A stretch of 33,369 nt of DNA, taken from the IMG/VR virus record IMGVR_UViG_3300025890_000010; one strand, given 5' to 3'. This DNA comes from a virus. The notes beneath the pieces were generated by a model. It did no database searches, was not told the origin of the DNA, and worked only from the letters and a program-made list of their open reading frames with translations. The position numbers and the translations under genes are program-made. Below, piece after piece: positions 2,356-20,877 of the stretch (its first letter is position 1; every line of letters starts with the position of its first letter).

Positions 2356-2454
2356 GTATTTAGTACTTGTATAATGATAGCAGTTTGCTATATAGATAAA
2401 GGAGACAGTAACAACACAGGAGCAATACACAGATACTTTACAAGTACTAAATAC
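2356..2454. promoter_or_regulatory. Divergent control region with a perfect 16-bp inverted repeat (GTATTTAGTACTTGTA at 2356..2371; TACAAGTACTAAATAC at 2439..2454)
   Basis: Both arms were verified base by base. They lie between the leftward RHH gene (ATG 2317) and the rightward operon (ATG 2474). A TATAAT hexamer sits at 2370..2375 and TTTACA at 2437..2442. Confidence 0.6.
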
Positions 2455-2473
2455 TAGAAAAAAAGGAGAAACA

Positions 2474-2659
2474 ATGAAACACATTATTGATTACGACCAC
2501 GTTTGCAGGGTTTGCCAAGGCAAGCAACGCATCTTTAGGTGGGAGTATTCACCAACAACGGCCAAGCAAGTCTTGGTAGGTGAGGACTGTGATTATTGTG
2601 TAGGCGGTTATCGCGCTATCACGATAGGCAAGCGAAATAAAAATAGACATCAAGATTAA
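2474..2659 (+). CDS. Small zinc-ribbon protein (CxxC...CxxC)
   Basis: CRVC and CDYC pairs. AAGGAG RBS lies upstream of the ATG. First gene of the rightward operon. Confidence 0.6.
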   Translation: MKHIIDYDHVCRVCQGKQRIFRWEYSPTTAKQVLVGEDCDYCVGGYRAITIGKRNKNRHQD

Positions 2660-2694
2660 CATTCATATGCTAAAAAAAACTGGAGGAAATAGCC

Positions 2695-3423
2695 ATGAAG
2701 TATGGAGGCTTCATTTTTGGTGCGTCGGAAGATCACCAGAAACAGCAACGCATTGGGATTAGAGCATTAGCCAAAGCCCAAAGCGCAGAGGTTAAATGGT
2801 TTGTAGAAGAAGAGGGGCGTCAGAAGCGCGATACAGAGGACAGAGAGGAGCTACAAGCGTGCGCTAGGTATTGCCGCACCAACAACGCCACTTTCGCACT
2901 CAGTTCGCTCTCTGGATTCACCAAACGCAAATGGCAAGGCATGACGTGGCTCAAGCATCAGATCGAAATGCATGACATGACGTTTGCGATTGCAGATGAC
3001 CCAACAATGACAAAAGGGTCATTGCATGTGCTCAGTGCGGCAGCAGACATTCAACGCGCACGTATTGCAGAGAAAAGCAAAGCCGCGTTGGACAATATAA
3101 AACGCAAACTTGATGCCGGTGAGGAGGTGATTGCCAAACGCTCTGGCAAAAAGGTTGAGAAGCTAGGCACGCATAAACACATTAGAAAATCTGCAAAGCT
3201 AGGCAACAAAGCCCAAGCGGAAAGAGCCGCAGAACGTGATGCACAAGTCTGGCCTATGATAGAGCAATATCTTGCACAAGGGCTAGGCTACAATGCGATT
3301 GCAAGGCAACTCAACATTCAAGGAATACCCACGCCCAACGATAAGGCACGGTATAAAAGAGACACGCTAGGGGTTTGGTATGCCTCAACAGTTCGCAATA
3401 TTGTATTACGGAGGCAAAAATGA
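2695..3423 (+). CDS. Serine-recombinase-like protein (resolvase-type N-domain plus a recombinase-domain-like C-terminal HTH), possibly catalytically degenerate
   Basis: The N-terminus FIFGASEDHQKQQ resembles the YxRVSTxxQ motif but has G where Arg is expected. LHVLSAAADIQRARIAEKSKAAL resembles the E-helix. The C-terminus GYNAIARQLNIQGIPTP...WYASTVRNIVLRR resembles the recombinase domain. GGAGG RBS. Confidence 0.55.
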   Translation: MKYGGFIFGASEDHQKQQRIGIRALAKAQSAEVKWFVEEEGRQKRDTEDREELQACARYCRTNNATFALSSLSGFTKRKWQGMTWLKHQIEMHDMTFAIADDPTMTKGSLHVLSAAADIQRARIAEKSKAALDNIKRKLDAGEEVIAKRSGKKVEKLGTHKHIRKSAKLGNKAQAERAAERDAQVWPMIEQYLAQGLGYNAIARQLNIQGIPTPNDKARYKRDTLGVWYASTVRNIVLRRQK

Positions 3424-3911
3424 ATAAGCCAACAGATTTTATCAAGCATTCTAAAAATGAGTTAAGCATAGAAGAACACGCAAAATTTGATTTTCTAGAC
3501 GCTCAGGCCAAGTTCGAGCTCCAGCTATTTAAAGACCGCGAACGATGGATTAAAGAAAGCAGCATGAGCGCATACTTTCAGTCTACCAGAATTAAGGCCG
3601 CATTTGCACGACAGCTTATTCTTTCGGAGCATCGTCAGTTTGGTCAGACGGTAAAGATGATCGTCGTTTCGCTTGAAATACCAAGGGAGACGGTCAGTCG
3701 TATTGTGACGGAGTGTCACGCCGCTAACTACATCTATCGTAACCCTAACCCAGACTATCAGCGTTACTGGCTACCATCAGAAAAGCTAGTGGATGACATG
3801 GCAAAATACGCGGAATATATAGCTAAAACGTGGCTCGACAGCGGCTTTTACGAGAGCTCAAGTATCTACCCAGAGCTTCTTAAATACCTCGAAATGAAAC
3901 GAAAAGCGTAA
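3420..3911 (+). CDS. Putative winged-helix DNA-binding protein
   Basis: The ATG at 3420 overlaps the upstream stop (ATGA). The segment IPRETVSRIVTECHAANYIYR looks like an HTH recognition helix. Confidence 0.45.
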   Translation: MNKPTDFIKHSKNELSIEEHAKFDFLDAQAKFELQLFKDRERWIKESSMSAYFQSTRIKAAFARQLILSEHRQFGQTVKMIVVSLEIPRETVSRIVTECHAANYIYRNPNPDYQRYWLPSEKLVDDMAKYAEYIAKTWLDSGFYESSSIYPELLKYLEMKRKA

Positions 3912-3985
3912 TGTTATAAGGTGATGTTGCGTCACATTGTTTTATATTTTTGCCGTGTTAACTTAGATACAGGAGAAAGACAGCA

Positions 3986-4354
3986 ATGAGACATAAACGA
4001 CGCAAAAGCAATCCAACAGTCCTAAAGATGGGGATGGGATTAATGCGTTTCAAGAGACGGGTTGATATTCCCATGTGGCATGTAGATCATATCCAAAAGA
4101 CCGTTAACATTCTGCGTGAGTATGCAGATCGCATAGAATCTACGTTAGAGAGCAATTCTATGCGAAACTCAGACAAGACGTTGGCGGCTCAGTACATGAT
4201 CCAATCTATGAATACGGACATGGCTTGTATGACTCCAAAAGACCCCAGAGAACGTGGGGCAGAACGCGGTGGGTATAATCACGGCTACGGACGCGGTTAT
4301 CTCGATACAAACGGCTTTGACGAGTTGTTAGCGCGGGAAGATATGGATGACTAA
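3986..4354 (+). CDS. Hypothetical protein (basic N-terminus, acidic C-terminus)
   Basis: AGGAGA RBS 8 nt upstream. 122 aa ORF. Confidence 0.55.
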   Translation: MRHKRRKSNPTVLKMGMGLMRFKRRVDIPMWHVDHIQKTVNILREYADRIESTLESNSMRNSDKTLAAQYMIQSMNTDMACMTPKDPRERGAERGGYNHGYGRGYLDTNGFDELLAREDMDD

Positions 4355-4383
4355 ATACTACGTTTAGTAAGTACAAAAAAGTG

Positions 4384-4399
4384 TTTAGTACTTGGATAA
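4384..4399 (+). promoter_or_regulatory. Copy of the recurrent 16-mer (TTTAGTACTTGGATAA); a related half-site TTTAGTAAGTAC lies at 4363..4374
   Basis: Matches the motif at 2359, 10279, 11223 and 20862 (plus strand) and 2436 (inverted). It sits in the 62-bp gap inside the rightward operon. Confidence 0.5.
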
Positions 4400-4416
4400 A
4401 AAAAGAAAGGACTACA

Positions 4417-4683
4417 ATGTTTAGGCAACAAAAACATTATAGTGAAGTATTAGAGGGCAGTAGCAGTAGAACTTCACGTAATCAGACTAAGGAAAATGTA
4501 TATCGTTTTCGCATAATATATATTATCTCTCTATATACTATACGAACTAAAAACCAGTACAGACAGGTTAAACTGTACTGTCAGAACAGTCAAGTCTGTG
4601 GAATACTTGGGGATATCGTAGGAGGGCTTTCAGTATTTGCCCTCTTATTCCTTGCCCTTATCTTTGGGGGAGTTTTGCTATGA
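4417..4683 (+). CDS. Possible tail-anchored membrane protein (88 aa); coding status uncertain
   Basis: AAGGA lies 7 nt upstream of the ATG at 4417. The stop overlaps the next ATG (ATGA). The C-terminus has a TM-like stretch GILGDIVGGLSVFALLFLALIFGGVLL. The middle is AT-rich with odd composition and hairpins. Confidence 0.4.
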   Translation: MFRQQKHYSEVLEGSSSRTSRNQTKENVYRFRIIYIISLYTIRTKNQYRQVKLYCQNSQVCGILGDIVGGLSVFALLFLALIFGGVLL

Positions 4684-4949
4684 ACGTTATAAAAGTAAAA
4701 TTCCGCAAAGAAGATGAAGAAGCAACGCTACGGCCAGACTTTGAAGACAGCATGATTGATCTTGCTGAAAACCTCGCAATTTGTATGGCAGAAATACGCA
4801 AGTGGGAAGGATTTAAGCTTGCGGCAGCTTCCGCTTTAAGTGAGGGCATGGACCTTTTAGATATTGCAGAACTGCAAACTGAAAACCATGTCTTTAAAAT
4901 TAGCAATGGAGAGCTTGAAGTAGATTTTTACAAGGGCAGTGTGCATTAA
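4680..4949 (+). CDS. Hypothetical acidic protein
   Basis: 89 aa. Translationally coupled at both ends. Confidence 0.55.
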   Translation: MNVIKVKFRKEDEEATLRPDFEDSMIDLAENLAICMAEIRKWEGFKLAAASALSEGMDLLDIAELQTENHVFKISNGELEVDFYKGSVH

Positions 4950-5200
4950 TGAGACACCCACTTTCCCCTGTGCAAAAAGAAATCTATGACTTTATCGTTG
5001 ATTTTTACAAGCAGAATGACAACGTAAACCCTTCACTTCGCATTATTGCAGACGGTCAAATCAACGGTAAGCAAGTCATTAAAAAACGTGTGAACCGTGA
5101 AAACATCAGACGCAGAATAAAAACGCTTTGCGAGAAGGATTACTTAGAAGAACGCTTTTTTCGCAACGTTGCTTACTGGGTGCCAAAAGATGTCGGGTGA
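4949..5200 (+). CDS. LexA-N-terminal-like winged-helix DNA-binding protein
   Basis: LSPVQKEIYDFIVDFYKQN...SLRIIA...RRIKTLCEKDYL resembles the LexA DNA-binding domain layout. The start overlaps the upstream stop (TAATG). Confidence 0.5.
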   Translation: MRHPLSPVQKEIYDFIVDFYKQNDNVNPSLRIIADGQINGKQVIKKRVNRENIRRRIKTLCEKDYLEERFFRNVAYWVPKDVG

Positions 5201-5489
5201 GGAAGAAGGTGAAGCACCCGAAAGCCTTTCAGCAATAGACTTGATGTTAGCAATGGCACAAGTTGAAAACCGAGCAATGCATAGGCTGTTTGGCGGTAGG
5301 CGAACTAAAGTAAGTCAGCCGGTGGATCGAAACAAAAAGCTGAAGCTTACGACAAAAGCACGGATGGTTAATCGGATGCTCCATATGGATATGACTGACA
5401 CGCAAATAGCAAACGTGTTGGACACTACCAGGCAGTCTGTTAGCCAGATTAGATCACGCTATGATTTACCTCGAAAGTCAGAGCTATGA
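5190..5489 (+). CDS. HTH protein (C-terminal helix-turn-helix)
   Basis: DTQIANVLDTTRQSVSQIRSRY is HTH-like. The start was chosen at the ATG at 5190; the track start at 5169 is also possible. Confidence 0.45.
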   Translation: MSGEEEGEAPESLSAIDLMLAMAQVENRAMHRLFGGRRTKVSQPVDRNKKLKLTTKARMVNRMLHMDMTDTQIANVLDTTRQSVSQIRSRYDLPRKSEL

Positions 5490-5719
5490 TTACATATTAT
5501 ACCGCGCTTGTTTTGGGCTACACGCTGCAAAAAGAGCCTGTCACTGTCACGTTTTGGTTAAACAGTTATGACCAATGTTTAGACGCAATGGATAGCATGG
5601 AAGACATGTATGATTTTCTTGCTGATCATGTAAGCGACAATCGTATTTTTATGATCTGCGATAAATCAAACGTCAAAAGCAATGATCTGGTTAAACCAAG
5701 GCTACGGCCTAATAGTTAA
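5486..5719 (+). CDS. Hypothetical small acidic protein
   Basis: 77 aa. ATGA overlap with the upstream gene. Confidence 0.5.
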   Translation: MITYYTALVLGYTLQKEPVTVTFWLNSYDQCLDAMDSMEDMYDFLADHVSDNRIFMICDKSNVKSNDLVKPRLRPNS

Positions 5720-5731
5720 AGGGAGTAAAAA

Positions 5732-6079
5732 ATGAAGTGGCGAATAGATAACAAAGAAAAGTTATTAATTCTTGATGAAAATTACGAAATAGATTTTGAC
5801 CGATTAGGTGAGACTGATTGGTTTGGTCATTTAGCTTCAAAAAATTGGGTTGATATGGATGAGCTATTCAGCGCTTTTGTCAGCGCATTTAGAGCGGCAG
5901 AGTTACCCTTAACTAAGGACTTCTTTGCTAAATTTAAACTGGCGTATCTGCGAAATGTCGATGATAAATTTTACGATTTAATACTGAACTTACGTTACGC
6001 AAACGATGAGCGGATACTTTTTAGAAAAGTCAGCGAGTTAAAATCAGAACAAGAATTAATAAAAGAAATCGTCGCTTAA
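5732..6079 (+). CDS. Hypothetical protein, low-GC terminal gene of the early operon
   Basis: GGGAG RBS. 115 aa. Spot counts of the first 120 nt give about 31 percent GC, against roughly 45-50 percent in structural genes. Confidence 0.6.
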   Translation: MKWRIDNKEKLLILDENYEIDFDRLGETDWFGHLASKNWVDMDELFSAFVSAFRAAELPLTKDFFAKFKLAYLRNVDDKFYDLILNLRYANDERILFRKVSELKSEQELIKEIVA

Positions 6080-6175
6080 AATTATGGTAAGCTATGAGTG
6101 CCGGGTTTTATCGCAATACCCTAACCATAGCAGTCTAGGTTTTCTTTGATATAGTAGAAAATGACTAGACACTAA

Positions 6176-6199
6176 GGGAGGTTGCAGCCTCCCTTTTTT
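6176..6199 (+). terminator. Rho-independent terminator at the convergence of the rightward operon and the late operon
   Basis: GGGAGG-TTGCAG-CCTCCC followed by TTTTTT. It lies directly after the endolysin stop on the other strand, where the stem is followed by UUAGUGU. Confidence 0.8.
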
Positions 6200-6740
6200 A
6201 TACAATAGACAAGGCGAGCTCTAAGGTTTCTTTATTACGCCTTGTCCAACCCTTCCCATAATGCTGGAAGTCATCTAAACCCTCATAAAACTTCTGCCGG
6301 CCATAATAGTAATTATCCAAAACTTCTTTCGGATCACGATCATGCACGGCGGCAATAGTCATTTTACCAATAGCCCCGTCCACAGTAAGCCCACCAGTAG
6401 CCTTTTGCAGTATTTTGGCAGCTCTACTCGGCCCGGCGTTCACACACATGTCAGCGGTGCTTATATCGACTCCTGACGGCAAGTTGTCAGCTTTAACTAC
6501 GTCCCAATAGTTTTTCTTGTACAAGGGCTTCACGTCTTCCTCGGTCAACGCCTTCATAACCTCAATTGGGGCTGGCTTCCCGGTATACTCTGCCCACGTC
6601 CAGGCAGTGACGCCCAACATCGTTGAGCCCTTGTTTCCGTGGCCGTCACCCTTGGCATTTCCGTTGTCACGTTCGTCGTCTGTGAAGCCTCCCTCATGCT
6701 TTATGAGCATCTTAAAAAACATGTACCAATTTTCTTTCAT
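6198..6740 (-). CDS. Endolysin, GH108-like lysozyme with a PG_binding_3-like C-terminal domain
   Basis: LIKHEGGFTDD...GVT N-terminal motif. C-terminus LQKATGGLTVDGAIGKMTIAAV...GKGWTRR. Start moved to the ATG at 6740 (GGAG RBS, TAATG overlap with the upstream stop). Confidence 0.8.
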   Translation of the reverse strand: MKENWYMFFKMLIKHEGGFTDDERDNGNAKGDGHGNKGSTMLGVTAWTWAEYTGKPAPIEVMKALTEEDVKPLYKKNYWDVVKADNLPSGVDISTADMCVNAGPSRAAKILQKATGGLTVDGAIGKMTIAAVHDRDPKEVLDNYYYGRQKFYEGLDDFQHYGKGWTRRNKETLELALSIV

Positions 6741-7006
6741 TACTCTGTCTCCACTTCCTTGGTTCCCCATTGTCTTTGGTAGCCGTCGGCGTCATACGCG
6801 GCCCCCCATTTATTCTCCGTAAATTCAGCGAATTTTATGAGAGCCTCGGTGTCGGCGTAAAGTTGGTCGATCCAGCCGTTGTTTTCTTCGACCTGAGCTT
6901 CTAAATGGTAAAGTTTGTGCATTTGCGAGCTGACCCACCACACGCCAGCCACAGTCTGCAACAGTATTGCCCCCACGAGCACAATTGGAATTTTGAGATC
7001 ACTCAT
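6740..7006 (-). CDS. Type-II membrane protein with a coiled-coil periplasmic part; i-spanin (Rz-like) candidate
   Basis: Start MSDLKIP at 7006 (TAATG overlap). N-terminal TM IPIVLVGAILLQTVAGVWWV, then a helical region. Located between the holin candidate and the endolysin. Confidence 0.4.
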   Translation of the reverse strand: MSDLKIPIVLVGAILLQTVAGVWWVSSQMHKLYHLEAQVEENNGWIDQLYADTEALIKFAEFTENKWGAAYDADGYQRQWGTKEVETE

Positions 7007-7389
7007 TACTTTTTCCCCATAAACTGTTTTGTGCCTTTGAGACCTATGGCGGCCAGGCAAACCACGTAGACCAGATAGGTATACCACTCGGGCAACTCAG
7101 CTAGGCGGGCAAACCCGTTTTTGACTGTTTCTTCCATGCCAGGCACAAAACAGAGACACACGGGCGCCAATACCAAAATTGTGACAACTTCATCCTTCCA
7201 GCTATTGTGCGTGCCCTGGGCCATAATCTTCTCCCAGTCCGCCGTTGAGGTTTCTTTCGAGAGCAAAATTTTTGCTTTGGCCTCAGCCTCCGTTAATTTT
7301 AATTTAGCGTTGGCAGCTTGCGCTTGAGTTTTGGCACTTAGCCATCCACCCGCTAATTCAGCTACTGGGCCGATCAGTGCTTGCAGCAT
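7006..7389 (-). CDS. Holin candidate (multi-TM; resembles the GTA-type 3-TM holin family)
   Basis: Strong GGAGG RBS 6 nt upstream of the ATG at 7389. Hydrophobic segments VVTILVLAPVCLCFVPG and YTYLVYVVCLAAIGL. Positioned in the lysis cassette. Confidence 0.45.
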   Translation of the reverse strand: MLQALIGPVAELAGGWLSAKTQAQAANAKLKLTEAEAKAKILLSKETSTADWEKIMAQGTHNSWKDEVVTILVLAPVCLCFVPGMEETVKNGFARLAELPEWYTYLVYVVCLAAIGLKGTKQFMGKK

Positions 7390-7684: not shown

Positions 7685-7789
7685 CAATTCGCCTCGCTAT
7701 TTTTAGGGCTATGCCCCGGTCCCTTGTAATTACAATTACCTTCCCGTTTTCGTCGTAAATTATGTATTTTCCGCGCCATTCTCTCAGTG

Positions 7790-8442: not shown

Positions 8443-8446
8443 TGTC

Positions 8447-8644: not shown

Positions 8645-8690
8645 CAAGAACCCTCCCAAATGCGTAGCTTGATCTTAAAATTCAACATTT

Positions 8691-8975
8691 CTAATATCCG
8701 TTTGCTACTAATTTTGAAAAATCACCACTGAGAAGCTTCTTTTTGACGTATGCTAGAAACTCCTGTGAACCAAGTGTTGTTCCTGACTCCCTCATCCACA
8801 TTTCAGCCACGACTAAAGGTATAGAACCGGCTAACCGTAGATCGCTGTTTCTGTTGTGGCCATCTATGTTTCGCTCTTTGTTGAAATCGAGTATGCGTTG
8901 CACGTCCTGAGAACGTTTTATGATGAGCTTGTTATCTTCAGTGTGGTAAGTGGTGTTTAAAAGTGTATTGCTCAT
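8691..8975 (-). CDS. Hypothetical protein
   Basis: The ATG at 8975 overlaps the upstream stop (ATGA). 94 aa. Confidence 0.55.
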   Translation of the reverse strand: MSNTLLNTTYHTEDNKLIIKRSQDVQRILDFNKERNIDGHNRNSDLRLAGSIPLVVAEMWMRESGTTLGSQEFLAYVKKKLLSGDFSKLVANGY

Positions 8976-9214
8976 TTTGGTGCCTCTCCACCTTCCCAAG
9001 CTTCATTGACGTTTGGGGTACTAGGACAATCTGCCATAAGTTGCCCTTTGTTGTTTCTTGCTCGCTTTGGTTTGCTTGTTGTTTTCACTTCTTCTGCAAA
9101 TCCATTTTCAATAAAAGTCGCAGCGTCTTCTGCACTCACCTCAACTACATCGCCCATGTTTTTAGGCTCATTGTTTAAAAACGGTTGGCGGTCTGTTGTT
9201 ATCTTTATTTTCAT
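8972..9214 (-). CDS. Small protein following the capsid gene (unknown; head-associated by position)
   Basis: 80 aa. AGGAGA RBS. Begins MKIKITTDRQPFL...GDVVEVSAEDAATFIENGFAEE. Confidence 0.55.
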   Translation of the reverse strand: MKIKITTDRQPFLNNEPKNMGDVVEVSAEDAATFIENGFAEEVKTTSKPKRARNNKGQLMADCPSTPNVNEAWEGGEAPK

Positions 9215-9231
9215 CTCATTCTCCTTGAAAG

Positions 9232-9256
9232 AGGGGCATTTCTGCCCCCCTTTTTT
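9232..9256. terminator. GC hairpin between the capsid gene and the next gene (GGGGCA-TTTC-TGCCCC), with the T-run on the plus strand only
   Basis: The plus strand reads GGGGCATTTCTGCCCCCCTTTTTT. On the coding (minus) strand the stem is followed by TCTTTC. It is a possible partial terminator after the capsid mRNA or a block to antisense transcription. Confidence 0.5.
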
Positions 9257-9258
9257 GG

Positions 9259-10251
9259 TTATGATGCGTTTACATCTGCCACAACGCCGTGGGCTTTTTG
9301 CGACGTTACCTGGAGTCCATATTCGCAGCTGATTAATCGCCGCTCTGATAGTCCGGTTTTCGCTAATGGCTCTTGCTTTGCTGTTTGTAGATAAGCAACT
9401 TCCGCATAGTTTGGATCAAGAACAAAAACATCTGGTGTATAATCTACACTAGACACTGTTCTTACGCGCATATGACGATTTGGCACTATCTGAAGCTCAC
9501 CAAAGTCACCAATATAAACATCAATAGCAGCGTTTAGTTTGCTATCTTCTGCCTCTTTAAAGCGTGTTGCGTTACCTGTAAAAGCAGATATTTTTTGCTT
9601 TTGTGCAGAACCACACATTACAACAGATGGTTGTGCTCCACTATCCCAACAGCCCTTGATAACATCTTTGAGCAATGTTTCTGTCAATGGTCTAAGAGTA
9701 CCGTCTGTCGCTGCTGCGTTAACAGAACCCGATTCACCTGTCCCAGATGTAGTACCGTTGGCACCACCAGAACCGCGTGAAACGTTAGAAGTTAGGTAAG
9801 CCGGTAAGCCTGCTGTTTGTCTAGCTGTACCAGATGACCCTGCTGCTGCTGCAACGTTTGCAAGCAACATAGCTTCCATGTCTCTTTTTAGTTCAGCTAG
9901 TTTGTAAGCTACTTGCTTCGCTACTGTTTGCGCGTTTGCTACACCATTAACAGCTTGGTTTGTAGATGATACCTCTACAACTTTTGCTGAAATTTGTGTG
10001 TAACCACCTTTGCGAACAGCGTTAGTGGGTGCCGTATTGGAAAGCCCCACATCGCCCTCTATTTGCCTATTTGCGCCAGTTGCCGCTAGGTCAACTTCAC
10101 TCCACTCAAAGTAAGTGTTGTCAACATTGCGAGAACCAATTGTGCTCATAAAAATAGTTTCAGTTGGGCTTATCGATGCCATTGCTTTACTCAAATCCTC
10201 GCGGATTGTTGTGACATCATATGTCTCATTTGTATTTGCTGTAACGGCCAT
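9259..10251 (-). CDS. Major capsid protein (HK97-fold; SU10/DUF5309-like by N-terminal pattern)
   Basis: 330 aa. N-terminus TIREDLSKAMASISPTETIFMSTIG...YFEWSEVDL. Lies immediately downstream of the scaffold gene. Confidence 0.8.
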   Translation of the reverse strand: MAVTANTNETYDVTTIREDLSKAMASISPTETIFMSTIGSRNVDNTYFEWSEVDLAATGANRQIEGDVGLSNTAPTNAVRKGGYTQISAKVVEVSSTNQAVNGVANAQTVAKQVAYKLAELKRDMEAMLLANVAAAAGSSGTARQTAGLPAYLTSNVSRGSGGANGTTSGTGESGSVNAAATDGTLRPLTETLLKDVIKGCWDSGAQPSVVMCGSAQKQKISAFTGNATRFKEAEDSKLNAAIDVYIGDFGELQIVPNRHMRVRTVSSVDYTPDVFVLDPNYAEVAYLQTAKQEPLAKTGLSERRLISCEYGLQVTSQKAHGVVADVNAS

Positions 10252-10278
10252 TGCTTTTTCCTTTCGCTAAATATACCG

Positions 10279-10294
10279 TTTGGTACTTGTATAA
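10279..10294 (+). promoter_or_regulatory. Copy of the recurrent 16-mer (TTTGGTACTTGTATAA) in the scaffold-capsid gap
   Basis: Identical 16-mer to 11223..11238. Lies 27 nt upstream (minus-strand sense) of the capsid ATG. Confidence 0.5.
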
Positions 10295-10297
10295 AAA

Positions 10298-11278
10298 TTA
10301 CGGGTTTAAGAGATAATTAGCTATGCTATCAATATCACCTTTCGCCCTCATTACTGCTTCTGCCTTTTTACTTGCAGCAGCCTTTCCTTGGCTAAGACGT
10401 TTTTTTGCACCGGCTTTAACAGGGGCAATGCTTTCTTTTGAAGAAGTTGCTTTGCCGCGCTTTTGCACAAGCTTACGAAAACGCATGGCATCATACATTG
10501 CTAGTATATACCTGTGATCTCGCACGCTCTCCAATTCCTGTGACGTAAACCCATAGTGCTCTCCTACTTCCATCAAGCCTTTTTTTATTGCTTCGCCTTT
10601 TTCTGGGTCTGCAAGAACGGGTAATCTTTCTGTTAGTAATTGAGTTTGCTGTTGGGTAAACGCTTGCAATTGTTGCTGCTTTCGTTGTGCACTCTGCTGC
10701 TCCATCTGCAAAAAATGTTGTACGTTGGTATCATATTCAGCCTTGGCCTCGTCGTAAGACAACTTTGCTTCCATATAAGCTATGGGATCATTGTTGAATA
10801 ACTCTTTTGACGGTGGGGTAGGCTCAGATAGACCATTTTGTTGCGCTTTTTTAAAAAACTCTGCCTGTTGGTTTTGCTGTTGTGCTAACGCATTTGATTG
10901 CTCTTGTACTTGTTTTTCAAGCTGTGCAATCTCTTGCATTCGCCTTTGGATGTAATCTTGACCGGCGTTATTGCGCTTTAGCTCCCCAAGGGTTGCTTTC
11001 TTCATCTGACCATCGGCTTTGTATTCAATTTCGAGGTCATCAGAAAGCTCTAGAGGGGCGGCGGTTTCTTCCTCAAGATCATCCGCATCTAATTGATCGA
11101 GTAGATCATCGTCTGCATCATTCTCAGCTTGTTCAACTACGTCAGTCTCTTGTTGAGGTTCTTCAATAATTTCTTCGCTAGATGCTTCTACTACTTCTTC
11201 TGTAGTATCTTCAGTCCTAGTATTTGGTACTTGTATAAGCTGCTCAACGGCAGCATCAATTGTGTTAGGCGTGTTCAC
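10298..11278 (-). CDS. Scaffolding protein
   Basis: 326 aa. Very acidic N-terminal third, Q/E/K-rich coiled-coil centre. Lies between the portal and capsid genes. Confidence 0.6.
   Translation of the reverse strand: MNTPNTIDAAVEQLIQVPNTRTEDTTEEVVEASSEEIIEEPQQETDVVEQAENDADDDLLDQLDADDLEEETAAPLELSDDLEIEYKADGQMKKATLGELKRNNAGQDYIQRRMQEIAQLEKQVQEQSNALAQQQNQQAEFFKKAQQNGLSEPTPPSKELFNNDPIAYMEAKLSYDEAKAEYDTNVQHFLQMEQQSAQRKQQQLQAFTQQQTQLLTERLPVLADPEKGEAIKKGLMEVGEHYGFTSQELESVRDHRYILAMYDAMRFRKLVQKRGKATSSKESIAPVKAGAKKRLSQGKAAASKKAEAVMRAKGDIDSIANYLLNP
11223..11238 (+). promoter_or_regulatory. Copy of the recurrent 16-mer (TTTGGTACTTGTATAA) inside the 5' end of the scaffold CDS
   Basis: Exact 16-mer. On the minus strand it encodes QLIQVPNT. 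Confidence 0.4.
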
Positions 11279-11282
11279 GGTG

Positions 11283-13604: not shown

Positions 13605-15197
13605 TTATTGCGCTATAGCTTGACCTGATAAATATGTAGCTAATGCTGCTCTTGCACGCTCTCGACCAACAGGCGTTAAGTTACGCCCTTGTAAAATGCC
13701 GTTTATCAAATTATCTACGTTTCTTTTTTGCAGTTGTGAGCCTGTTGCTTTACCGGCAATACCTAAACCTGCGGTGCTTGCTGCAACCGTGCCTAAAACA
13801 GCAGGGTCATTAGAAATGTTTGTAGCTAATGCAACTGGAACACCAGTGCCCAAACCTAAAGAAACAACTCCCGTAGGTGCTAATTTACCAACAAAGCGAG
13901 CAATGTTTTCTGCGCCGCCACCCTCTACTATTTGCCTAAGTTGTTGAAACTCATCTTGTGTCCAACCCACTTCTTTACCATCTATAATGCGCCTTACTAA
14001 TGGGCGAAACTCTGCACGAATTGCATTTTCTAAATCCATATTTGCAGTTGCAGATCGAGTTCTAGCTAACTCTAACAAGGTTTCAATTTGCTCTGCTTTC
14101 ATTGCTTTTGCGTACATAGCATTTGCAACTTTAATATTTGGAGCAATGCTTGCAGTTTGTTGGTCAAATTCTCTTAACAAATTACGCAATGCATTTTTTT
14201 CTGAACCTTTTGCATCCTGGTAACGACTGTTCAAACCTTTACGTATTGCCAGAATATTTGCGCCTGTCATGCCTTTGTCTTTGTATGCATCAAGTAATTT
14301 GAAGGCACCGCGCAACTTTGGATAATCGGGATCAATTACAATACGATTATCTGATCTTGGCAAAAGCAAACCGTTACGATTTAAAATATTATAGGAGTTT
14401 TCAAATATAGTTTCTGTTATTTCTGGCTGCGCTGATAAACCTTCATCAATTTGGTTTTCATATAGGTTGCCGGCTTGTCTTTTTAGTTCCGCAGACGTTA
14501 AAGGGCCAGTAGGTGCTTTTTTCACTAATCGTTCTGCAACTGAGACTGATTTTGCGCCACCTAATGCACCAAGAATATTTCCTACCATTTGTGCAGTTGG
14601 ATTATCTGGTAAAATTTCCTCAACAGCTTGCTCCGATGCACCACCCGCCAAAGAAGCTGCCGCATCAGTTGCTGCAAACATTGCAGGCGCTTTTACTGCT
14701 TCTGTTTTAACTTGGGCTAATGCATTTTTTCCCGCTTGTATAACTGTTGGCGCTGCATTTACGGCTGCTTTTGGCGCTAATGCTAATATACCCGCAGCAG
14801 CAGGTATTGTTTCTCCTAAAGTTTCAGTGCCACCCCTTACGATACGCTGTGCTCTTGTCTGAGGCGCTACATCTGTCATGGCGCTATCATTACTAAGCAT
14901 TTGAAAGAGATTTCTTATGCTTTGCGAACCACCAACAGGAGCATCACCAGTATCAAGCCCTAATTTATTTAATCCAGATGAAATAATATCTACCGGCGCA
15001 CCGGCTCCACGCGCAACACCTTCATAAAACCCTGTTAGGGCTTGCTCTGTCATATTTGTAGAAACTGGATTAACTGGCTTTTCATTCCTTTTTGATATTT
15101 CTTGCTCAATAATTAAAGCACTTGCAGCATCTTTGGCAGCAACCGCCTTACTCAACGCATTTTGCAATTGGTCATCTGTTTTTGTGCTTAAATCCAT
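13605..15197 (-). CDS. Ala/Gly-rich virion protein, unknown function (internal/ejection protein candidate)
   Basis: 530 aa ORF in the structural operon. No motif recognised. Confidence 0.5.
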   Translation of the reverse strand: MDLSTKTDDQLQNALSKAVAAKDAASALIIEQEISKRNEKPVNPVSTNMTEQALTGFYEGVARGAGAPVDIISSGLNKLGLDTGDAPVGGSQSIRNLFQMLSNDSAMTDVAPQTRAQRIVRGGTETLGETIPAAAGILALAPKAAVNAAPTVIQAGKNALAQVKTEAVKAPAMFAATDAAASLAGGASEQAVEEILPDNPTAQMVGNILGALGGAKSVSVAERLVKKAPTGPLTSAELKRQAGNLYENQIDEGLSAQPEITETIFENSYNILNRNGLLLPRSDNRIVIDPDYPKLRGAFKLLDAYKDKGMTGANILAIRKGLNSRYQDAKGSEKNALRNLLREFDQQTASIAPNIKVANAMYAKAMKAEQIETLLELARTRSATANMDLENAIRAEFRPLVRRIIDGKEVGWTQDEFQQLRQIVEGGGAENIARFVGKLAPTGVVSLGLGTGVPVALATNISNDPAVLGTVAASTAGLGIAGKATGSQLQKRNVDNLINGILQGRNLTPVGRERARAALATYLSGQAIAQ

Positions 15198-15206
15198 TAT
15201 ATTACC

Positions 15207-16214
15207 TTATTGAAAATAATCTTCTACACTTGAACTAGCGGCAAAAGGGTCTGTACGATCTAAAAGCTCTTGAAATGCTTGTGTTTGCGTAATATCGCCA
15301 CGTCTGTATTTTTGAATAATAGTTGCGCCTTGTGCATCATATTCAGCAATTCCGCGCATAGTTTTTAGAATTAATTGGTTGCCGCCAGGTAAATTGATAA
15401 GTCTTGGAAGCGACTGTTTAAATAATAGCAAATCAGCATCAGACATTGGCCCAGAACCTGGCGTTCTTTGTTGGGGCACAAGTTGATTTATTAATGCTTG
15501 GGCAGCTTGTAAATCGCTTAAACCTTCTGTTTCTATGCCAAAATTACCAGCAGCAAATTTAAACGCAGCAGCGGGGCCAGTATCGGCTCGTGATAAAAGT
15601 TGCTCCAATCTATTTATTTTATTGAGACTGCTTTGCGCTGTTGCGCCCACCTTAAAAGCCTCAGATAAAATTTTACTATCTTCTTCTGCAAACTTTGTAG
15701 CGCCTTTATTGTCTGCTGTATTCACATTTACAGTAGAACCACCACCACCAACTTGAGAAATTTTGCCTGTTGAAGATACATTGAACAAAGACTCTGCTGG
15801 TAAATTAGTGCCTTGCGCTTGGTTAAGCTGCGCACCAGTAAATGTTTGAAAGTTTTCTTTCGGAGATTGAAACATTTGGCCATAATATAAAGCCATTGCA
15901 TCTTTTAAGCCTAAACTGCCCGCCTCCAAAGCGCCTACAATTTGACCAGCAGTAGCATCACCGCGTTGTGCTCTCGATTTAAGAAAAGCTGTAGTTTTAT
16001 TTACTTTATCTTGCGCCTTACGTTCTTGTATATCACTTGCCGCCATATTCATCAAAGGCCGTAGCTGTTGTGGGTTGCCAGACAAGCTCATCAAAGCAAT
16101 TGCTAATTTATCGCTTGCGTTTTGATCTCGACCAGTAATTGCATCACCTAAACGACCAAACCCACGCTGCACGCCTTGACCAATATTTGCAAGTAATCCT
16201 CTTTGTTCAACCAT
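15207..16214 (-). CDS. Hypothetical virion protein
   Basis: 335 aa ORF, tightly packed in the structural operon. Confidence 0.5.
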   Translation of the reverse strand: MVEQRGLLANIGQGVQRGFGRLGDAITGRDQNASDKLAIALMSLSGNPQQLRPLMNMAASDIQERKAQDKVNKTTAFLKSRAQRGDATAGQIVGALEAGSLGLKDAMALYYGQMFQSPKENFQTFTGAQLNQAQGTNLPAESLFNVSSTGKISQVGGGGSTVNVNTADNKGATKFAEEDSKILSEAFKVGATAQSSLNKINRLEQLLSRADTGPAAAFKFAAGNFGIETEGLSDLQAAQALINQLVPQQRTPGSGPMSDADLLLFKQSLPRLINLPGGNQLILKTMRGIAEYDAQGATIIQKYRRGDITQTQAFQELLDRTDPFAASSSVEDYFQ

Positions 16215-16223
16215 ACTTAACTC

Positions 16224-16958
16224 CTAAAACGGTACTGGCATTCCAATATATTTAAGTGCTCCAAGAGTACCCAATATGCCTGGATTGTTTGTTTGCGTTT
16301 GCGACTGTGGTGTAGGCGCTGCACCTAACGCAGCAAGTGGCGCGGATAGGCTTTGCATTGGGCTGTTTGAGTAGCCCGCGAAATCACCCCTAGCGGCGTC
16401 AATGAGTTGCTGTTGGAGCATTTGCTGTAGCAAGCCTTGTTGCATCATATCCTGGTTAAGCGTGCGACCAGTTGTAAATGCCTGGTTAGCCAAACCGCCT
16501 AACTGATTAGCTGCTGCAACTCTTTGCGCTCGATCAGTCATTGCGTTGCTCGTAGCAGTGTTAAAAGCATCACGTCGCATAGGCGCTATTAGGTTGCCTG
16601 CCATACGACCAAATTCAGCATTAGTAACACCTTCCGCAACGCCTTGCCTCGAACCGCCAAAAGCGTTTGCCCTTGTTGCTGCTGCGCCCATGTTGTTGAT
16701 CGCCATTTGCCTTTGTCGTTCAATATCGCTTTGCGTGCGGTCAATGACGTTTTGCGTGTACGGGTTCATGTAAGCGCCCACATTCAGCGGGGCTGCAATT
16801 GCTTGCTGCGTTGCGCCCATTGCACCCTGCAACCCAGTTGACGCAGCTTGATTTACGTTAAACCCTGGCTGCGGTTGCATAGGCGCTACTGTCATTGCGT
16901 TTGGCTGTTGATTTACTGGCTGTACTTGACCGCCGCCCTTTGATCCTTGGCCTGCCAT
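16224..16958 (-). CDS. Hypothetical Q/M/A-rich virion protein
   Basis: 244 aa. The start overlaps the upstream stop. Confidence 0.5.
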   Translation of the reverse strand: MAGQGSKGGGQVQPVNQQPNAMTVAPMQPQPGFNVNQAASTGLQGAMGATQQAIAAPLNVGAYMNPYTQNVIDRTQSDIERQRQMAINNMGAAATRANAFGGSRQGVAEGVTNAEFGRMAGNLIAPMRRDAFNTATSNAMTDRAQRVAAANQLGGLANQAFTTGRTLNQDMMQQGLLQQMLQQQLIDAARGDFAGYSNSPMQSLSAPLAALGAAPTPQSQTQTNNPGILGTLGALKYIGMPVPF

Positions 16959-18622
16959 TATGTTGTCACCTTTGCTGCTGCGATTTTTTCAATGTCTTTT
17001 AGTATTGCGCTACTTATGCCCGTTTTTTCTTGGAAGGTACTTAAATCTCCCCCAAATTTTGCCATGAAACTTTCGGCGTAGGCTCCCAAGTTTCCTTCAC
17101 GAGCCGCTTTATCTAAAACTTTTCTTGTGGCTTTCACGTTGCCTTTACCAGTTGGAATACCTTTACCCGCTAACGCAGCCTGCTCTGCCACTTCAGTTGT
17201 TGTTAATGTTCCAAACTGCCTTTCGAGAGCCATTATTTGATCCCCGGCTAAATTCGTGCCCTCGTCAAGCAAGGCTTGGCCGCCGACTGTCTCAATTGCG
17301 CTATTTAGCTCGCTTGCCCTACGTTGCGCTGAATTTTCAGTACTTGCAGTTCTAGCCGCTATTTCATCTGCAAGCCTTGCTTTAGCCTCTGGAGTTGCAG
17401 AGCCAAAAATGTTTGATAAAACACCCGGTTCAGGAGTTGTGTAGCCTGCCGCCGCCGCGAGAGCAGGGTCAACTTGGCCTGCGCCATAACCCACACTTAC
17501 GCTTGATCCAAAATCGTTTGTGAATGTATTGTTACGACCTTGCTTAGATGGGTCTGCGTAGGTTGAAAAATCATAGCCCTGCGTGCTTAATCCTAAGTTA
17601 AAATCACTTGCTGATCTTATGTCTGGGCCTTCTGTGTAAACCTCTGGGCTTACGCCGTAGGCTGCTTCCATTGCCTCCAAACCCTCTGCGCTTGGTTCAA
17701 GTGTACCGACAAATTGCCCTGTGCTTGGGCTTTTATAGGCTGGTCTACCATAATCATCAAAATAATTTATGTCAGGATTATAGAACTGATACTTTTGCCC
17801 TGGCACGTCTGGTATTTCAAAACCAGTGCCGATGAGGTTTGCGTTTAGTGCATCCAAATCTGTTTCTGCAATAGCATCGCCAGGTTGAGCGTCATTCAAC
17901 GGCACAATCGGAGGCGTGGTGTCAGGCCCAAATATACCAGGTATAAATCCTGGCTGAAACTCTGGCGGCGTATATGGGATCACTGGAACCTCTGGCACTG
18001 GTGGTGGTCCAGGTGGTATTACTGGAGGCACTACAGGTGGTATTACTACAGGTGGTATTAGGCCACCACCGCCACCACCGCCGCCACCGCCGCCACCGTT
18101 TCCACCGCCACCGTTTCCACCGCCGCCACCGTTTCCACCGCCGCCACCGTTTCCACCGCCGCCGCCGCCACCACCGTTTCCACCGCCGCCACCGCCGCCG
18201 TTGCCTGGGACACCTGGAACTACGCCAGGGGGTAGCGCAAATGGAGGACTGCCAGGGTCGATGAACATATCATTGATTGCAGAGAATTGGTCTGGTCGGT
18301 TATACGCAAAATCTGCCATTGACTGATTAAACAAAGGCGCGGCGCTGTAGGCTCTAATTCCGTTCGCGTATTCTGTTGGAGCGCCCATGCCGCCGTATAT
18401 GTCTGCGCCTGCCGGGGTGCCTAAACCAAAAGCATCAGCAGCTTGCGCCGTGTTGCCAAACGCAGACATCTGCATAGGCGTGAAAGCAGCCGTCGTTGCG
18501 CCAAAGCTTTGCGGAACGTAACCTAATTTAGAAATTATGTCTGCTCGCGCTAAATTTGCTTTTGCCGCATCCTCAATGTATTGAGGTATTTCAACCTGTG
18601 TCGTGCTGCCGCCCTTGCTCAT
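16958..18622 (-). CDS. Virion protein with a 48-residue Gly/Asn tract and a 35-residue Pro-rich tract (internal/ejection or tail protein candidate)
   Basis: 554 aa. Residues 140-187 are G/N only. Residues 188-222 read LIPPVVIPPVVPPVIPPGPPPVPEVPVIPYTPPEF. Confidence 0.55.
   Translation of the reverse strand: MSKGGSTTQVEIPQYIEDAAKANLARADIISKLGYVPQSFGATTAAFTPMQMSAFGNTAQAADAFGLGTPAGADIYGGMGAPTEYANGIRAYSAAPLFNQSMADFAYNRPDQFSAINDMFIDPGSPPFALPPGVVPGVPGNGGGGGGGNGGGGGGGGNGGGGGNGGGGGNGGGGNGGGGGGGGGGGGLIPPVVIPPVVPPVIPPGPPPVPEVPVIPYTPPEFQPGFIPGIFGPDTTPPIVPLNDAQPGDAIAETDLDALNANLIGTGFEIPDVPGQKYQFYNPDINYFDDYGRPAYKSPSTGQFVGTLEPSAEGLEAMEAAYGVSPEVYTEGPDIRSASDFNLGLSTQGYDFSTYADPSKQGRNNTFTNDFGSSVSVGYGAGQVDPALAAAAGYTTPEPGVLSNIFGSATPEAKARLADEIAARTASTENSAQRRASELNSAIETVGGQALLDEGTNLAGDQIMALERQFGTLTTTEVAEQAALAGKGIPTGKGNVKATRKVLDKAAREGNLGAYAESFMAKFGGDLSTFQEKTGISSAILKDIEKIAAAKVTT
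18062..18205. repeat. Imperfect tandem repeat (CCACCGCCGCCACCGTTT-type units) encoding the Gly/Asn tract
   Basis: The plus strand shows repeated CCACCGTTTCCACCGCCG units. This also creates the artefactual plus-strand ORF 17974..18264. Confidence 0.85.
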
Positions 18623-18982
18623 TTAAATCTCCTTGACGTAGGATGTGTGCATTGGCTCCCATCCGTGTTTTGCTAGTGGTTTTTTCCAACCAAAACGCCC
18701 GGTCATATTTAACGCCGTGCAGCCCTGCTGTTTTGCCCAACTTATTACATCCTCGTGCATGGTCAAAATTTCCGTGAGATCTCCACCACCTAGAAAAACA
18801 TTGAGCACCTTTTTCTTTGGATATTTTATGATCTCAGTGACCAAACAGCTTTTCTCGGCAGGCCATAGTTGCATGGTGCCGTTATGCAAGCCCTCGTAAA
18901 TATCAATAATGTCGTGGGTGCCGCCGCTATATTGTAAGGCTGCTTCTATGTGTGGCTTGCAACGCTCGAACTCCGGGTGCAT
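18623..18982 (-). CDS. Hypothetical conserved-looking phage protein
   Basis: The ATG at 18982 overlaps the upstream stop (TGATG). 119 aa. Confidence 0.55.
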   Translation of the reverse strand: MHPEFERCKPHIEAALQYSGGTHDIIDIYEGLHNGTMQLWPAEKSCLVTEIIKYPKKKVLNVFLGGGDLTEILTMHEDVISWAKQQGCTALNMTGRFGWKKPLAKHGWEPMHTSYVKEI

Positions 18983-19341
18983 CAAAAGGCACCGCCAGAC
19001 AAAGCTACGCGCTTCCAGATATTTGCACTTCCATCATGTGACGCCGTACAAACGTAAATGTAATTTGCATCCCAACTGACTAAACCCGCCGTATCGCCAG
19101 ACGCGCCAACGCTAGACGCAGGCACCGATTGCTTCACGACAACTTCCTTAAAAGCACCAGATTGGCTTATCACTGGCTTAACGGTAGAACGGTCAAACAT
19201 CAGATAACCGTTTTCTTTTGCGCTTTCACCGCCTGTTTGCTGAACAAGAGCAGACTGAGTACGATTTAAAAACACGTTTAAACGTCTGGCCCAATCCTTC
19301 CAATCTCCACCATACGGCTCTGGCGCTGCGTACTGGCTCAT
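18982..19341 (-). CDS. Hypothetical virion-associated protein
   Basis: 119 aa. Overlapping stop/start on both sides. Confidence 0.55.
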   Translation of the reverse strand: MSQYAAPEPYGGDWKDWARRLNVFLNRTQSALVQQTGGESAKENGYLMFDRSTVKPVISQSGAFKEVVVKQSVPASSVGASGDTAGLVSWDANYIYVCTASHDGSANIWKRVALSGGAF

Positions 19342-20819
19342 CTGCGCCCTCCGGCTACCGCGTCAACTCTGTTTATTCCCACACGCCAATCGGTTAACTT
19401 TTGCCCCTCAACCCTTAAACGCAACTGTCTACCAGTAAACCTGACGCTCGTGGGGTTAGTAAGGGAGAAGGGGCCGTAGCTGCGCTCAGTGCCGTTGGGG
19501 TAAAACCTTGACTTAAATATCGCGTTGACGTCGCCTTGGTTTTTCTCATCTGGGATCAACTCAGTAACGCTAATGACATTATCGCCAGTGCCAATCCTAA
19601 ACGGTCCAGTTTCAGCAAAAGGCGTAAGCGTGCCGTAATCAAAGCCAACTTCATGTTCGTAAATGTACATATCACTAGCATCAGCAAGCATGGGCTGTCT
19701 AAACGCGCCTCGATCTGCGCCTGCTGTACGGTCAAGCTCTCCGATATACCAAGTGTTTTCTGAGTAGTTATAAACAACGTATCGGTCATTTTCTGTAGAG
19801 CCGCTAGATGGGTAGTACCACCAAATCTCGTTATACAAGCTATTAGATACGCCAAACACCTTGCTTATTTGCGCTTTGTTTATGTCGTTAAATACGTAAT
19901 CAGAAACTTCGCTATTTAGTTCTGCAACTGAGCTACCATTATACGCAAAAAATGAGTTTACCCCCATCCACACCGCGCCTTGATCGACAACCACGCAAGC
20001 TAATGCAGCCGCCAAACCGCAAGCAGTACCAACGCGCTCTATCCCATAAACATACGGTGGGCCTTGGTATGTTGCGAAATGCGCATCTCTGCTTGTTAAG
20101 ATTAAAGAACCACCACGCACGTTTACACCCGCCATAATCGTGCCAGTAGTCGCAAGCTCTAAATCACCGGCCTCATTTGTCGTGGCAGGCGTCCATGTGT
20201 TGTTATCTTCCCGATCTGACCATTGCACCTTTCTAGGATTGCCGCCTGCACCCAACGCAAAAACAAATCTTTCCTCAGTAACAAGGATTGCTTCGTTACC
20301 AGTTGGGGCATTGCTTAGTAGCGCAGCGGGGGTGCCAGTGTTCAAGGCCCACTCATATATTTTACCGTCATCTGCATTTTGAGCTAACAGATTTTGACCC
20401 CAAGGCTGTAAATTCCACACCGTTGCAGGCTGTATGTTTGTTGTGTCTTGTCTTGCTACGCCGTAAGCCAGGGAGCCATAAAAGCCAGAACCGTATGCAG
20501 TAAAGGCGGCTGCATCCTCTCGACCCGCGCTTAACCCAGCTGGCGTAATGTCATACTTCACGCCTGCGTTGGTGTAAGCAAAAAGCTTGTTGTAAGTGCC
20601 AGACGCTATGTATCGGTTGCTACTATTATCTGTCCAAGCAAGCATACCTCTAAGTTTGTTAGGTGCAGCAGAGGTAGATTTCTTACGCCAACCGCCAATG
20701 GGGCGCATCAAACCGTCATGCCACCTGACAAGGTTAACGTCGCGCCAACGCCCTTCGCCCTGCAAATCCGTTCCGTTTCGATATACTCCGGGTGGGATTT
20801 TAAGGTCTACAAGTGCCAT
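19338..20819 (-). CDS. Large tail structural protein candidate
   Basis: 493 aa. N-terminus MALVDLKIPPGVYRNGTDLQGEGRWRDVNLVRW. Located after the tail-fibre genes. Confidence 0.4.
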   Translation of the reverse strand: MALVDLKIPPGVYRNGTDLQGEGRWRDVNLVRWHDGLMRPIGGWRKKSTSAAPNKLRGMLAWTDNSSNRYIASGTYNKLFAYTNAGVKYDITPAGLSAGREDAAAFTAYGSGFYGSLAYGVARQDTTNIQPATVWNLQPWGQNLLAQNADDGKIYEWALNTGTPAALLSNAPTGNEAILVTEERFVFALGAGGNPRKVQWSDREDNNTWTPATTNEAGDLELATTGTIMAGVNVRGGSLILTSRDAHFATYQGPPYVYGIERVGTACGLAAALACVVVDQGAVWMGVNSFFAYNGSSVAELNSEVSDYVFNDINKAQISKVFGVSNSLYNEIWWYYPSSGSTENDRYVVYNYSENTWYIGELDRTAGADRGAFRQPMLADASDMYIYEHEVGFDYGTLTPFAETGPFRIGTGDNVISVTELIPDEKNQGDVNAIFKSRFYPNGTERSYGPFSLTNPTSVRFTGRQLRLRVEGQKLTDWRVGINRVDAVAGGRR

Positions 20820-20861
20820 ACGCGCCTCACAACATTGCTACACCTACAAAATAACATAGTA

Positions 20862-20877
20862 TCTAGTACTTGTATAA
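20862..20877 (+). promoter_or_regulatory. Copy of the recurrent 16-mer (TCTAGTACTTGTATAA)
   Basis: Lies in the 58-bp gap, 42 nt upstream (minus-strand sense) of the ATG at 20819. Confidence 0.5.

Follow-up and report, generated by a model that had tools for sequence, protein, structure and literature searches.

What does a 16-bp motif that recurs six times in one phage genome do there? The question was raised by IMG/VR virus record IMGVR_UViG_3300025890_000010, a DNA stretch of 33,369 nt that we refer to as the window, in which an original prediction made from the letters alone took the repeats to mark a phage-wide regulon. That description is a fair one. The copies are co-oriented with genes and stand at the heads of transcription units. 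Our best answer, on which we are evenly balanced between belief and doubt, is that the motif serves this clade of phages as a compact core promoter of their own, one of a non-canonical kind that a specificity factor would read.

Six copies of an oriented, conserved 21-nt element

A scan of the window for the 16-mer with up to two mismatches returns exactly six matches, each carrying 0–2 mismatches, where shuffled sequences lead one to expect 0.07 and none of them reaches six. The six copies of the original prediction are thereby borne out. With the strand of the 16-mer in brackets, they occupy 2359–2374 (+), 2436–2451 (−), 4384–4399 (+), 10279–10294 (+), 11223–11238 (+) and 20862–20877 (+). 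When the copies are read in the gene-sense orientation, conservation runs 5 nt beyond the 16-mer, giving a one-directional 21-nt element, TTATACAAGTACYARAYACTA. Searching for this 21-mer with up to three mismatches recovers the identical six sites against an expectation of 0.00, and the six copies score 23–32 bits under a weight matrix derived from the window together with its relatives, compared with a top score of 17.2 bits among 30 shuffles. No position outside the block carries more than 0.5 bits. A borderline seventh match inside the primase-helicase gene (31809–31829, minus strand; CTATACAATGGCCAGATATTA) scores 17.4 bits against the shuffle maximum of 17.2 and is probably not functional.

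Bases 33272–33369 are identical to bases 1–98 (a 98-base terminal repeat), and the window is thus a whole genome of 33,271 bp with terminal redundancy or circular permutation. It is that of a podophage with SU10-type portal, capsid and adaptor proteins. The leftward transcription unit starts with a ribbon–helix–helix (RHH) gene at 2317 and runs round the genome junction to the endolysin gene at 6198, in the order RHH, RuvC-like resolvase, methylase, exonuclease, single-strand-binding protein, primase-helicase, terminase, tail and internal proteins, portal, scaffold, capsid and lysis genes. The rightward unit (2474–6079) encodes a 61-amino-acid (aa) zinc ribbon, a serine recombinase, a MarR-like protein and several small helix–turn–helix (HTH) proteins and ORFans.

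Copy 1 of the 21-nt element (2354–2374, minus strand; TTATACAAGTACTAAATACAG; 28.0 bits) faces the RHH gene, which opens the long leftward operon, with the end of its 16-mer 41 nt before the ATG. Copy 2 (2436–2456, plus strand; CTTTACAAGTACTAAATACTA; 26.3 bits) faces the zinc-ribbon gene, whose Shine–Dalgarno (SD) sequence begins 6 nt past the motif. Copy 3 (4379–4399, minus strand; TTATCCAAGTACTAAACACTT; 23.2 bits) is antisense to the rightward operon and sits in the gap behind a 122-aa gene. The remaining three copies lie in the leftward operon: copy 4 (10274–10294, minus strand; TTATACAAGTACCAAACGGTA; 25.9 bits) precedes the SD of the major capsid gene by 10 nt, copy 5 (11218–11238, minus strand; TTATACAAGTACCAAATACTA; 31.7 bits) covers codons 14–20 of the scaffold gene and is one of the two best matches in the window, and copy 6 (20857–20877, minus strand; TTATACAAGTACTAGATACTA; 31.8 bits) begins right after the stop codon of the tail-fiber assembly gene, its 16-mer ending 42 nt before the ATG of a 493-aa virion protein gene. 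As originally described, five of the six copies are intergenic, and the distances of four copies to a start codon (22, 27, 41 and 42 nt) are correct.

Conservation in related genomes had been proposed as a check on the motif, and both the motif and its positions are kept in IMG/VR relatives. It is present in a clade with portal identity of at least 79% and GC contents of 0.41–0.57, and a sister subclade carries the diverged form WTTTAMAAGTACCAGAYAY. The motif is without trace in relatives at 70% and 62% portal identity and in the cultured Roseobacter phage CRP-823 and Octadecabacter virus DB2, and no other over-represented motif was seen in any of these. The genome layout of DB2 and CRP-823 is similar to that of the window, CRP-823 also having the same replication module, and both carry TTGACA-type promoter-like hexamers in intergenic regions, the divergent region included. 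The portal-matched loci, 69 in all and some of them lacking the motif, contain 45 matches of up to three mismatches on the strand of the portal gene versus 4 on the other, and in 78 distinct contexts the motif is always sense to the local genes, save for one orthologous antisense group.

The positions fall into six classes. In the first, the motif stands before the RHH gene; this orthologue of copy 1 is found in every relative that covers the region, always with a palindrome preceding it. In the second it stands before the zinc-ribbon gene or other small early genes; copy 2 itself is limited to window-type relatives and is missing from relatives L009 and L074, and in L097 and L092 successive small genes each have their own copy and SD. 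The third class, at scaffold codons 14–20, is kept in about 20 relatives and sometimes consists of two copies 30 bp apart (L009, L011 and L054). In the fourth, the motif precedes the capsid gene where this is of the window type, as in L003, which has a counterpart of copy 4; in genomes with the other capsid type it lies directly behind a post-capsid GC-rich hairpin, 1–2 nt ahead of the next SD. The fifth is the position before the gene for the 493-aa virion protein. The sixth is the copy antisense to the rightward operon, whose place and orientation are kept from the window through L017/L152 and L071 to the GC-rich L059/L074.

In 596 Gb of genomes, we found 19 scattered single matches in unrelated taxa with no phage genes nearby, below a rough chance estimate of ∼35; the motif does not, then, represent a promoter or site common in cells. 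The motif sequence used as a literature search string matched unrelated primers only, and nothing relevant was found on comparable motifs in marine podophages. No close GenBank phage was returned by megablast against GenBank phages; the best portal match (45%) is to Octadecabacter virus DB2, and the closest replication module is that of pelagic Roseobacter phages of the CRP-822 type (PMC12629253). A portal scan of GTDB genomes for prophages gave no match. The nearest cultured relatives point to marine proteobacteria as the probable hosts.

The element as a candidate core promoter

One indication of what the element does comes from its position relative to translation signals. An SD starts −2 to +10 nt past the motif in 26 of the 78 contexts and no more than 2 nt past it in 17 of the 78; the SD of L013 shares bases with the end of the motif (ACTAGGAGG), and that of L081, from the sister subclade, is immediately next to it (CAGACACGGAGG). 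A separate promoter could not fit between motif and SD where the two abut. The window has a GC-rich hairpin behind its capsid gene (9233–9248, minus strand). Relatives that carry the other capsid type have a counterpart of this hairpin, and there a motif copy comes directly behind it, ahead of an SD. This hairpin–motif–SD order is terminator-then-restart logic. Together, the abutting SD and the preceding terminator hairpin indicate that any promoter for those genes must be the block itself, with its start site inside.

The motif does not behave as part of a bacterial sigma-70 promoter. That the spacing fits no canonical −35/−10 pair had been recognized from the outset and is confirmed: no such pair accompanies the copies, and no copy is flagged in the sense orientation by a consensus scan. 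The base that would stand at −7 is G, C, A or T in 41, 14, 10 and 5 cases, respectively. Genome-wide, sigma-70-like matches are at or below chance (16 versus 19.4 and 25 versus 29.0 expected from shuffles). The TAT(A/G/T)TT-like hexamer that had been noted at a near-constant distance behind three copies is not a general feature, since positions at offsets 21–27 carry at most 0.4 bits in non-orthologous copies and the hexamer is kept only between orthologues; at the RHH copy, moreover, the spacing had been given as N8 and is in fact TACAAGTAC-N9-TATTTT.

Selection on the motif can also be seen where it lies within a coding sequence. In GC-rich relatives, the scaffold-internal copy uses the rare codons CTT (3%), ATA (5–10%) and GTA (8%), the joint probability of which, given the amino acids, is ∼1e-5 to 1e-6. 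The rare codons are nevertheless kept, and selection therefore acts on the nucleic acid and not on the peptide only.

The most likely interpretation of these results is that the element is a promoter in the form of a single contiguous block of ∼21 bp. Its 5′ part, TAcAAn, resembles a −10 hexamer minus the final T, and invariant A residues follow at offsets 13, 15 and 17, which is 5–9 nt past this −10-like sequence (TAaAAg in the sister subclade). We infer that transcription would start in the 3′ third of the block, near the invariant A at offsets 13–17, such that mRNAs would begin only a few nucleotides ahead of the SD. Copy 1 would then fire the long leftward operon, comprising the RHH gene followed by the recombination and replication, packaging, tail, head and lysis genes. 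Copies 6, 5 and 4 would re-start or boost transcription before the 493-aa gene, inside the scaffold gene and before the capsid gene, respectively. Copy 2 may drive the rightward regulatory operon, and copy 3 would give rise to an antisense RNA against that operon.

In the rightward direction, copy 2 would work in tandem with a second, sigma-70-like promoter that we call P_div (2367–2394, plus strand), predicted from a −35 TTGTAT (2367–2372), a 16-nt spacer and a −10 TATATA (2389–2394). The −35 belongs to the reverse complement of motif copy 1, and the spacer holds a palindrome, ATAGCA-GTT-TGCTAT (2377–2391). P_div is not flagged by a strict sigma-70 consensus scan. The TTGTAW-16/17-TAT geometry is kept in all relatives, including those with differing palindromes, and it occurs again at a second, paralogous switch region in L092 (∼4870–4940) and L097 (∼10230–10300). 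The palindrome beside copy 1 varies between relatives while the motif is constant, and a palindrome that changes in this way would behave like an immunity operator. Between the divergent copies 1 and 2 there are also three CTGTNT repeats (2402–2433), which read GAGACAG, AACACAG and TACACAG on the plus strand at spacings of 11 and 14 bp; in relatives they take the form CTGTCT-N5/6-CTGTCT, sometimes overlap the SD of the divergent gene and bear a superficial likeness to a Pho box.

Because the phage encodes no detectable polymerase, a promoter of this kind would presumably be read by the host RNA polymerase together with a specificity factor that is invisible to homology searches. In the cascade that we envisage, unmodified host polymerase would express the rightward operon first, from P_div, and one small clade-restricted product of that operon, for example the zinc-ribbon ORFan, would activate the motif promoters. 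The zinc-ribbon gene (2474–2659, plus strand; CxxC...CxxC) is first in the rightward operon and limited to the clade, and its product is a speculative candidate for the factor; its AlphaFold2 (AF2) model has a mean confidence (pLDDT) of 53, below use for a fold search. Put in full, the proposal is that a clade of marine podophages without an RNA polymerase retargets the host enzyme to a 21-bp single-block promoter by means of a small factor lacking detectable sigma homology, the candidates being the zinc ribbon or another ORFan of the rightward operon, an operon itself switched on from an overlapping host-type promoter. We advance this fuller version tentatively, as possible rather than probable.

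Several observations weigh against a promoter. The first is the lack of a reader. Searches with Pfam and PHROGs, relaxed thresholds included, found no RNA polymerase or sigma factor in the complete 33.3-kb genome, nor was one found in the available 27.7 kb of the 37.7-kb relative L074, and for this reason the promoter's reader is hypothetical. The largest open reading frame (ORF) encodes the 691-aa portal, a search for patterns like motif B of the T7 polymerase gave nothing convincing, and ten small proteins had no matches to Sigma70_r2/r4 (Pfam at E-values up to 5) or to PHROG sigma families. Phage sigma-like factors of the gp36, gp55 and gp28 types are known to be very divergent, and the genome has several small ORFans with no assignment. 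Two virion proteins of 530 and 554 aa were considered as a hidden RNA polymerase and rejected, as they have no meaningful sequence relatives in the PDB and are not conserved in the motif-bearing relatives.

The other points concern individual copies. A promoter at the scaffold-internal copy would give an untranslated leader of ∼900 nt with no internal start codon nearby. The divergent gene of L009 and L074 has no motif copy, and another, host-type promoter is evidently used there. The copies before the 493-aa and RHH genes also allow a reading in which a −35-like TATACA has a −10-like hexamer 17 or 19–20 bp further on, which fits an operator laid over a host-type promoter. Finally, in the GC-rich relatives L008, L010, L012 and L150, the copy ahead of the 493-aa gene homologue shares bases with the stop codon before it and has a strong intrinsic terminator only a few nucleotides behind it, with a sigma-70-like TTGCGT-16-TAATAT beyond the terminator (L010 1178–1290, L012 1014–1120, L008 ∼1735–1850 and L150 ∼5100–5200), an odd arrangement for a productive promoter. 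Such a promoter would make only a 35–45-nt RNA; it could be a source of small RNA, an attenuated late promoter of the lambda pR′–tR′ kind, or a relic. The arrangement is poorly explained by both the promoter and the stoperator models.

If the element is a promoter, widespread uncultured marine podophages run nearly their whole lytic programme from one non-canonical promoter type, and an undiscovered way of directing the host RNA polymerase is implied for phages that encode no known polymerase or sigma factor. The 21-mer would then serve as a marker of transcription-unit starts in metagenomic contigs of the clade and as a defined DNA bait for the factor, and it could yield an orthogonal promoter/factor pair.

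Competing explanations and known systems

Three mechanisms had been offered originally for the element: a promoter for an unusual polymerase holoenzyme, an operator, and a signal in RNA. The first is now the best supported, the second survives in the form of a stoperator-like site and the third has fared poorly. In the surviving form of the operator explanation, the motif is an asymmetric operator or stoperator at which a repressor would block initiation or elongation, depending on orientation, and so keep the lytic genes silent; we regard this as the main rival, though as rather unlikely. The operators and stoperators of mycobacteriophage L5 (Cluster A) are asymmetric sites in multiple copies, placed both at the early promoter and within short gaps between genes, with an orientation that matches transcription (PMC9283540). 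The motif shares all of these properties, occurring in the early control region and short intergenic gaps with an orientation that follows transcription, save for the one copy that is conserved antisense to local transcription. It is also longer, at 21 bp, than the 13-bp L5 sites and long for the site of a monomer. The phage does encode a serine recombinase and several small DNA-binding proteins, but no L5-like two-domain monomeric repressor was found. Only one HTH protein of the phage is larger, a winged-helix protein of 163 aa and MarR type (3420–3911, plus strand). It is modeled as a dimeric MarR-type regulator and for this reason would suit the palindrome better than the asymmetric motif; it is a candidate binder of the palindromic operator.

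An operator of this kind would need host-type promoters to act upon, and the motif could cover the −35 of such promoters. At the copy before the 493-aa gene, the sequence reads TATACA-17-TATTTT (TAATTT in place of the second hexamer in orthologues), and at the RHH copies TATAAT, TACAAT or CATAAT lies 19–20 bp past TATACA. Across relatives, however, the RHH copy shows no consistent −35/−10 geometry and no host-type promoter is evident there, which would leave the lytic operon promoterless, and at the many sites where the SD abuts the motif behind a terminator hairpin the downstream genes would be expressed by read-through only. A roadblock at copy 2, which is situated past the predicted P_div start and ahead of the SD, would make the operon autoregulatory, and the motif–terminator–sigma-70-like order in L010 and L012 is no harder to explain with an operator than with a promoter. 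The motif is constant, on the other hand, while the regulators are 26–55% identical (RHH ∼51%, MarR-like 26–43%). Immunity specificities usually diverge across such an identity range, as the neighboring palindrome does here. If the motif is nevertheless a stoperator-like silencer, a mechanism so far documented in Cluster A mycobacteriophages would extend to these phages.

It is unlikely that the motif acts in RNA, as an unstructured element of the 5′ leader upstream of the SD that serves as a processing site or as the site of a translational regulator or enhancer. A sense-only motif that very often lies 0–10 nt upstream of an SD would be expected of such an element, its place right behind 3′ hairpins would allow a cleavage that leaves a stable upstream mRNA, and the transcript predicted from P_div would include copy 2. 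The copies that score highest and are best conserved, however, are inside the scaffold ORF with no start codon near, one conserved copy is antisense, and no promoter is detectable upstream of the RHH copy to transcribe it. The motif also stands ahead of the terminator in L010 and L012, not behind it. No Rfam family matches at the gathering score, and folding z-scores of −1.8 to +1.2 indicate no significant structure.

Very improbable is an ordinary sigma-70 element on the opposite strand, with TTGTAT as a −35 or TATAAT as a −10 and antisense transcripts as the product: copy 1 alone has a suitable partner (TTGTAT-16-TATATA with the operator in its spacer, kept in all relatives and the paralogous switch region) and a consensus scan flags ATAACA-16-TATAAT at 20851–20878, but the late copies have no partner hexamer at 16–18 bp, the most conserved bases would fall in the promoter spacer, and the explanation accounts for one copy and not for the family. 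The perfect TATAAT that had been noted on this strand is present in two of the six copies and is not conserved at the late ones, where orthologues have GTACAT and similar sequences and the last T is found in about half of the sites. Antisense RNAs directed into the late operon, as proposed with it, are unsupported; what stands is that copy 1 appears to form part of a sigma-70-like promoter on the opposite strand, and that promoter is aimed into the rightward operon.

Among known phage promoters, those of T7, T3 and SP6 offer a parallel, as each is one contiguous, oriented block of ∼20 bp that is repeated before gene blocks and after the post-capsid terminator, with a start in its 3′ part as inferred for the motif. 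The 5′-half likeness to T7 (TAATACGACTCAC versus TAATACAACTACC) is a lead and not a test. Unlike these phages, the window phage has no single-subunit RNA polymerase gene in its complete genome, nor does L074, and the TATA at −4 to −1 and the GG at +1 of T7-type promoters are absent from the motif. T4 gp55 is a phage sigma-like factor whose promoters lack a −35. The promoter read by gp36 of phiEco32 has AATGTA centered at −11.5 (PMC12276001). The window phage has portal, capsid and adaptor proteins of the SU10/phiEco32-type families, and the motif resembles both promoter types in having no −35 and in placing TAcAAn at about the right distance from the putative start site. It differs in its consensus and in its length (21 bp versus 6–8 bp), and no gp36- or sigma-like protein is detectable. 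Since the same motif stands before early and late genes, it does not mark a temporal class.

PeSL cassettes of T4-type phages combine a sigma-70 early promoter with a stem-loop and mark recombination junctions. The motif is likewise coupled to a stem-loop terminator in small gaps. Most relatives have exchanged a mosaic module at ∼8671–10400 that comprises the end of the scaffold gene, the capsid gene and two small downstream genes; the exchanged capsid type is 30–34% identical, and the flanks are 82–95% identical in DNA. Unlike PeSL junctions, this capsid-module swap breaks at ∼10400 and 8671, away from the motif, and we rejected a role of the motif as a recombination junction. In public-assembly contigs with the capsid gene, motif copies are internal and the contigs end elsewhere.

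The motif does not belong to the iterons at 30384–30566 either, being dispersed where these are clustered and of a different unit. The TTTGGTA heptamer had been taken to link the motif to that region (30431–30553), but it is the core of a separate iteron spaced at 11 bp, ATACCAAA, and the shared heptamer is a coincidence, since CCAGA and not CCAAA is found in most copies of the motif in relatives. A DnaA box (TTATNCACA) was excluded in that an invariant A of the motif stands where DnaA boxes need C. Compared by eye with their consensus sequences, sites for IHF, LexA, sigma-54, sigma-E and CtrA, Bacteroidetes-type promoters and archaeal TATA boxes do not fit the conserved positions any better than the DnaA box.

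Other features of the genome

The RHH gene downstream of copy 1 (2165–2317, minus strand) encodes an Arc-like protein. In the rightward operon, the serine recombinase gene (2695–3423) encodes 242 aa that comprise a resolvase domain and a partial ‘Recombinase’ domain, too few for a typical large serine integrase, and it shares an ATGA with the MarR-like gene, in which its own stop codon and the start codon of that gene overlap. Between the convergent ends of the rightward and leftward units lies a strong hairpin at 6174–6195 (AAGGGAGGTTGCAGCCTCCCTT) with T-runs on both sides, which is probably a bidirectional terminator.

In the leftward unit, a PD-(D/E)XK-type exonuclease ORF spans the genome junction, running from 747 on the minus strand, and has 256 aa as reconstructed. 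The 530- and 554-aa proteins (13605–15197 and 16958–18622) are encoded among the virion genes near the portal gene and have almost no homologues even in close relatives, making them hypervariable cargo inside a conserved structural block; the 554-aa protein contains a Gly-rich low-complexity stretch. The iteron cluster has several copies of its unit at 11-bp spacing together with inverted copies. It has the primase-helicase gene immediately upstream and a small winged-helix gene (29817–30167) ∼220 bp downstream, and is probably the replication origin.

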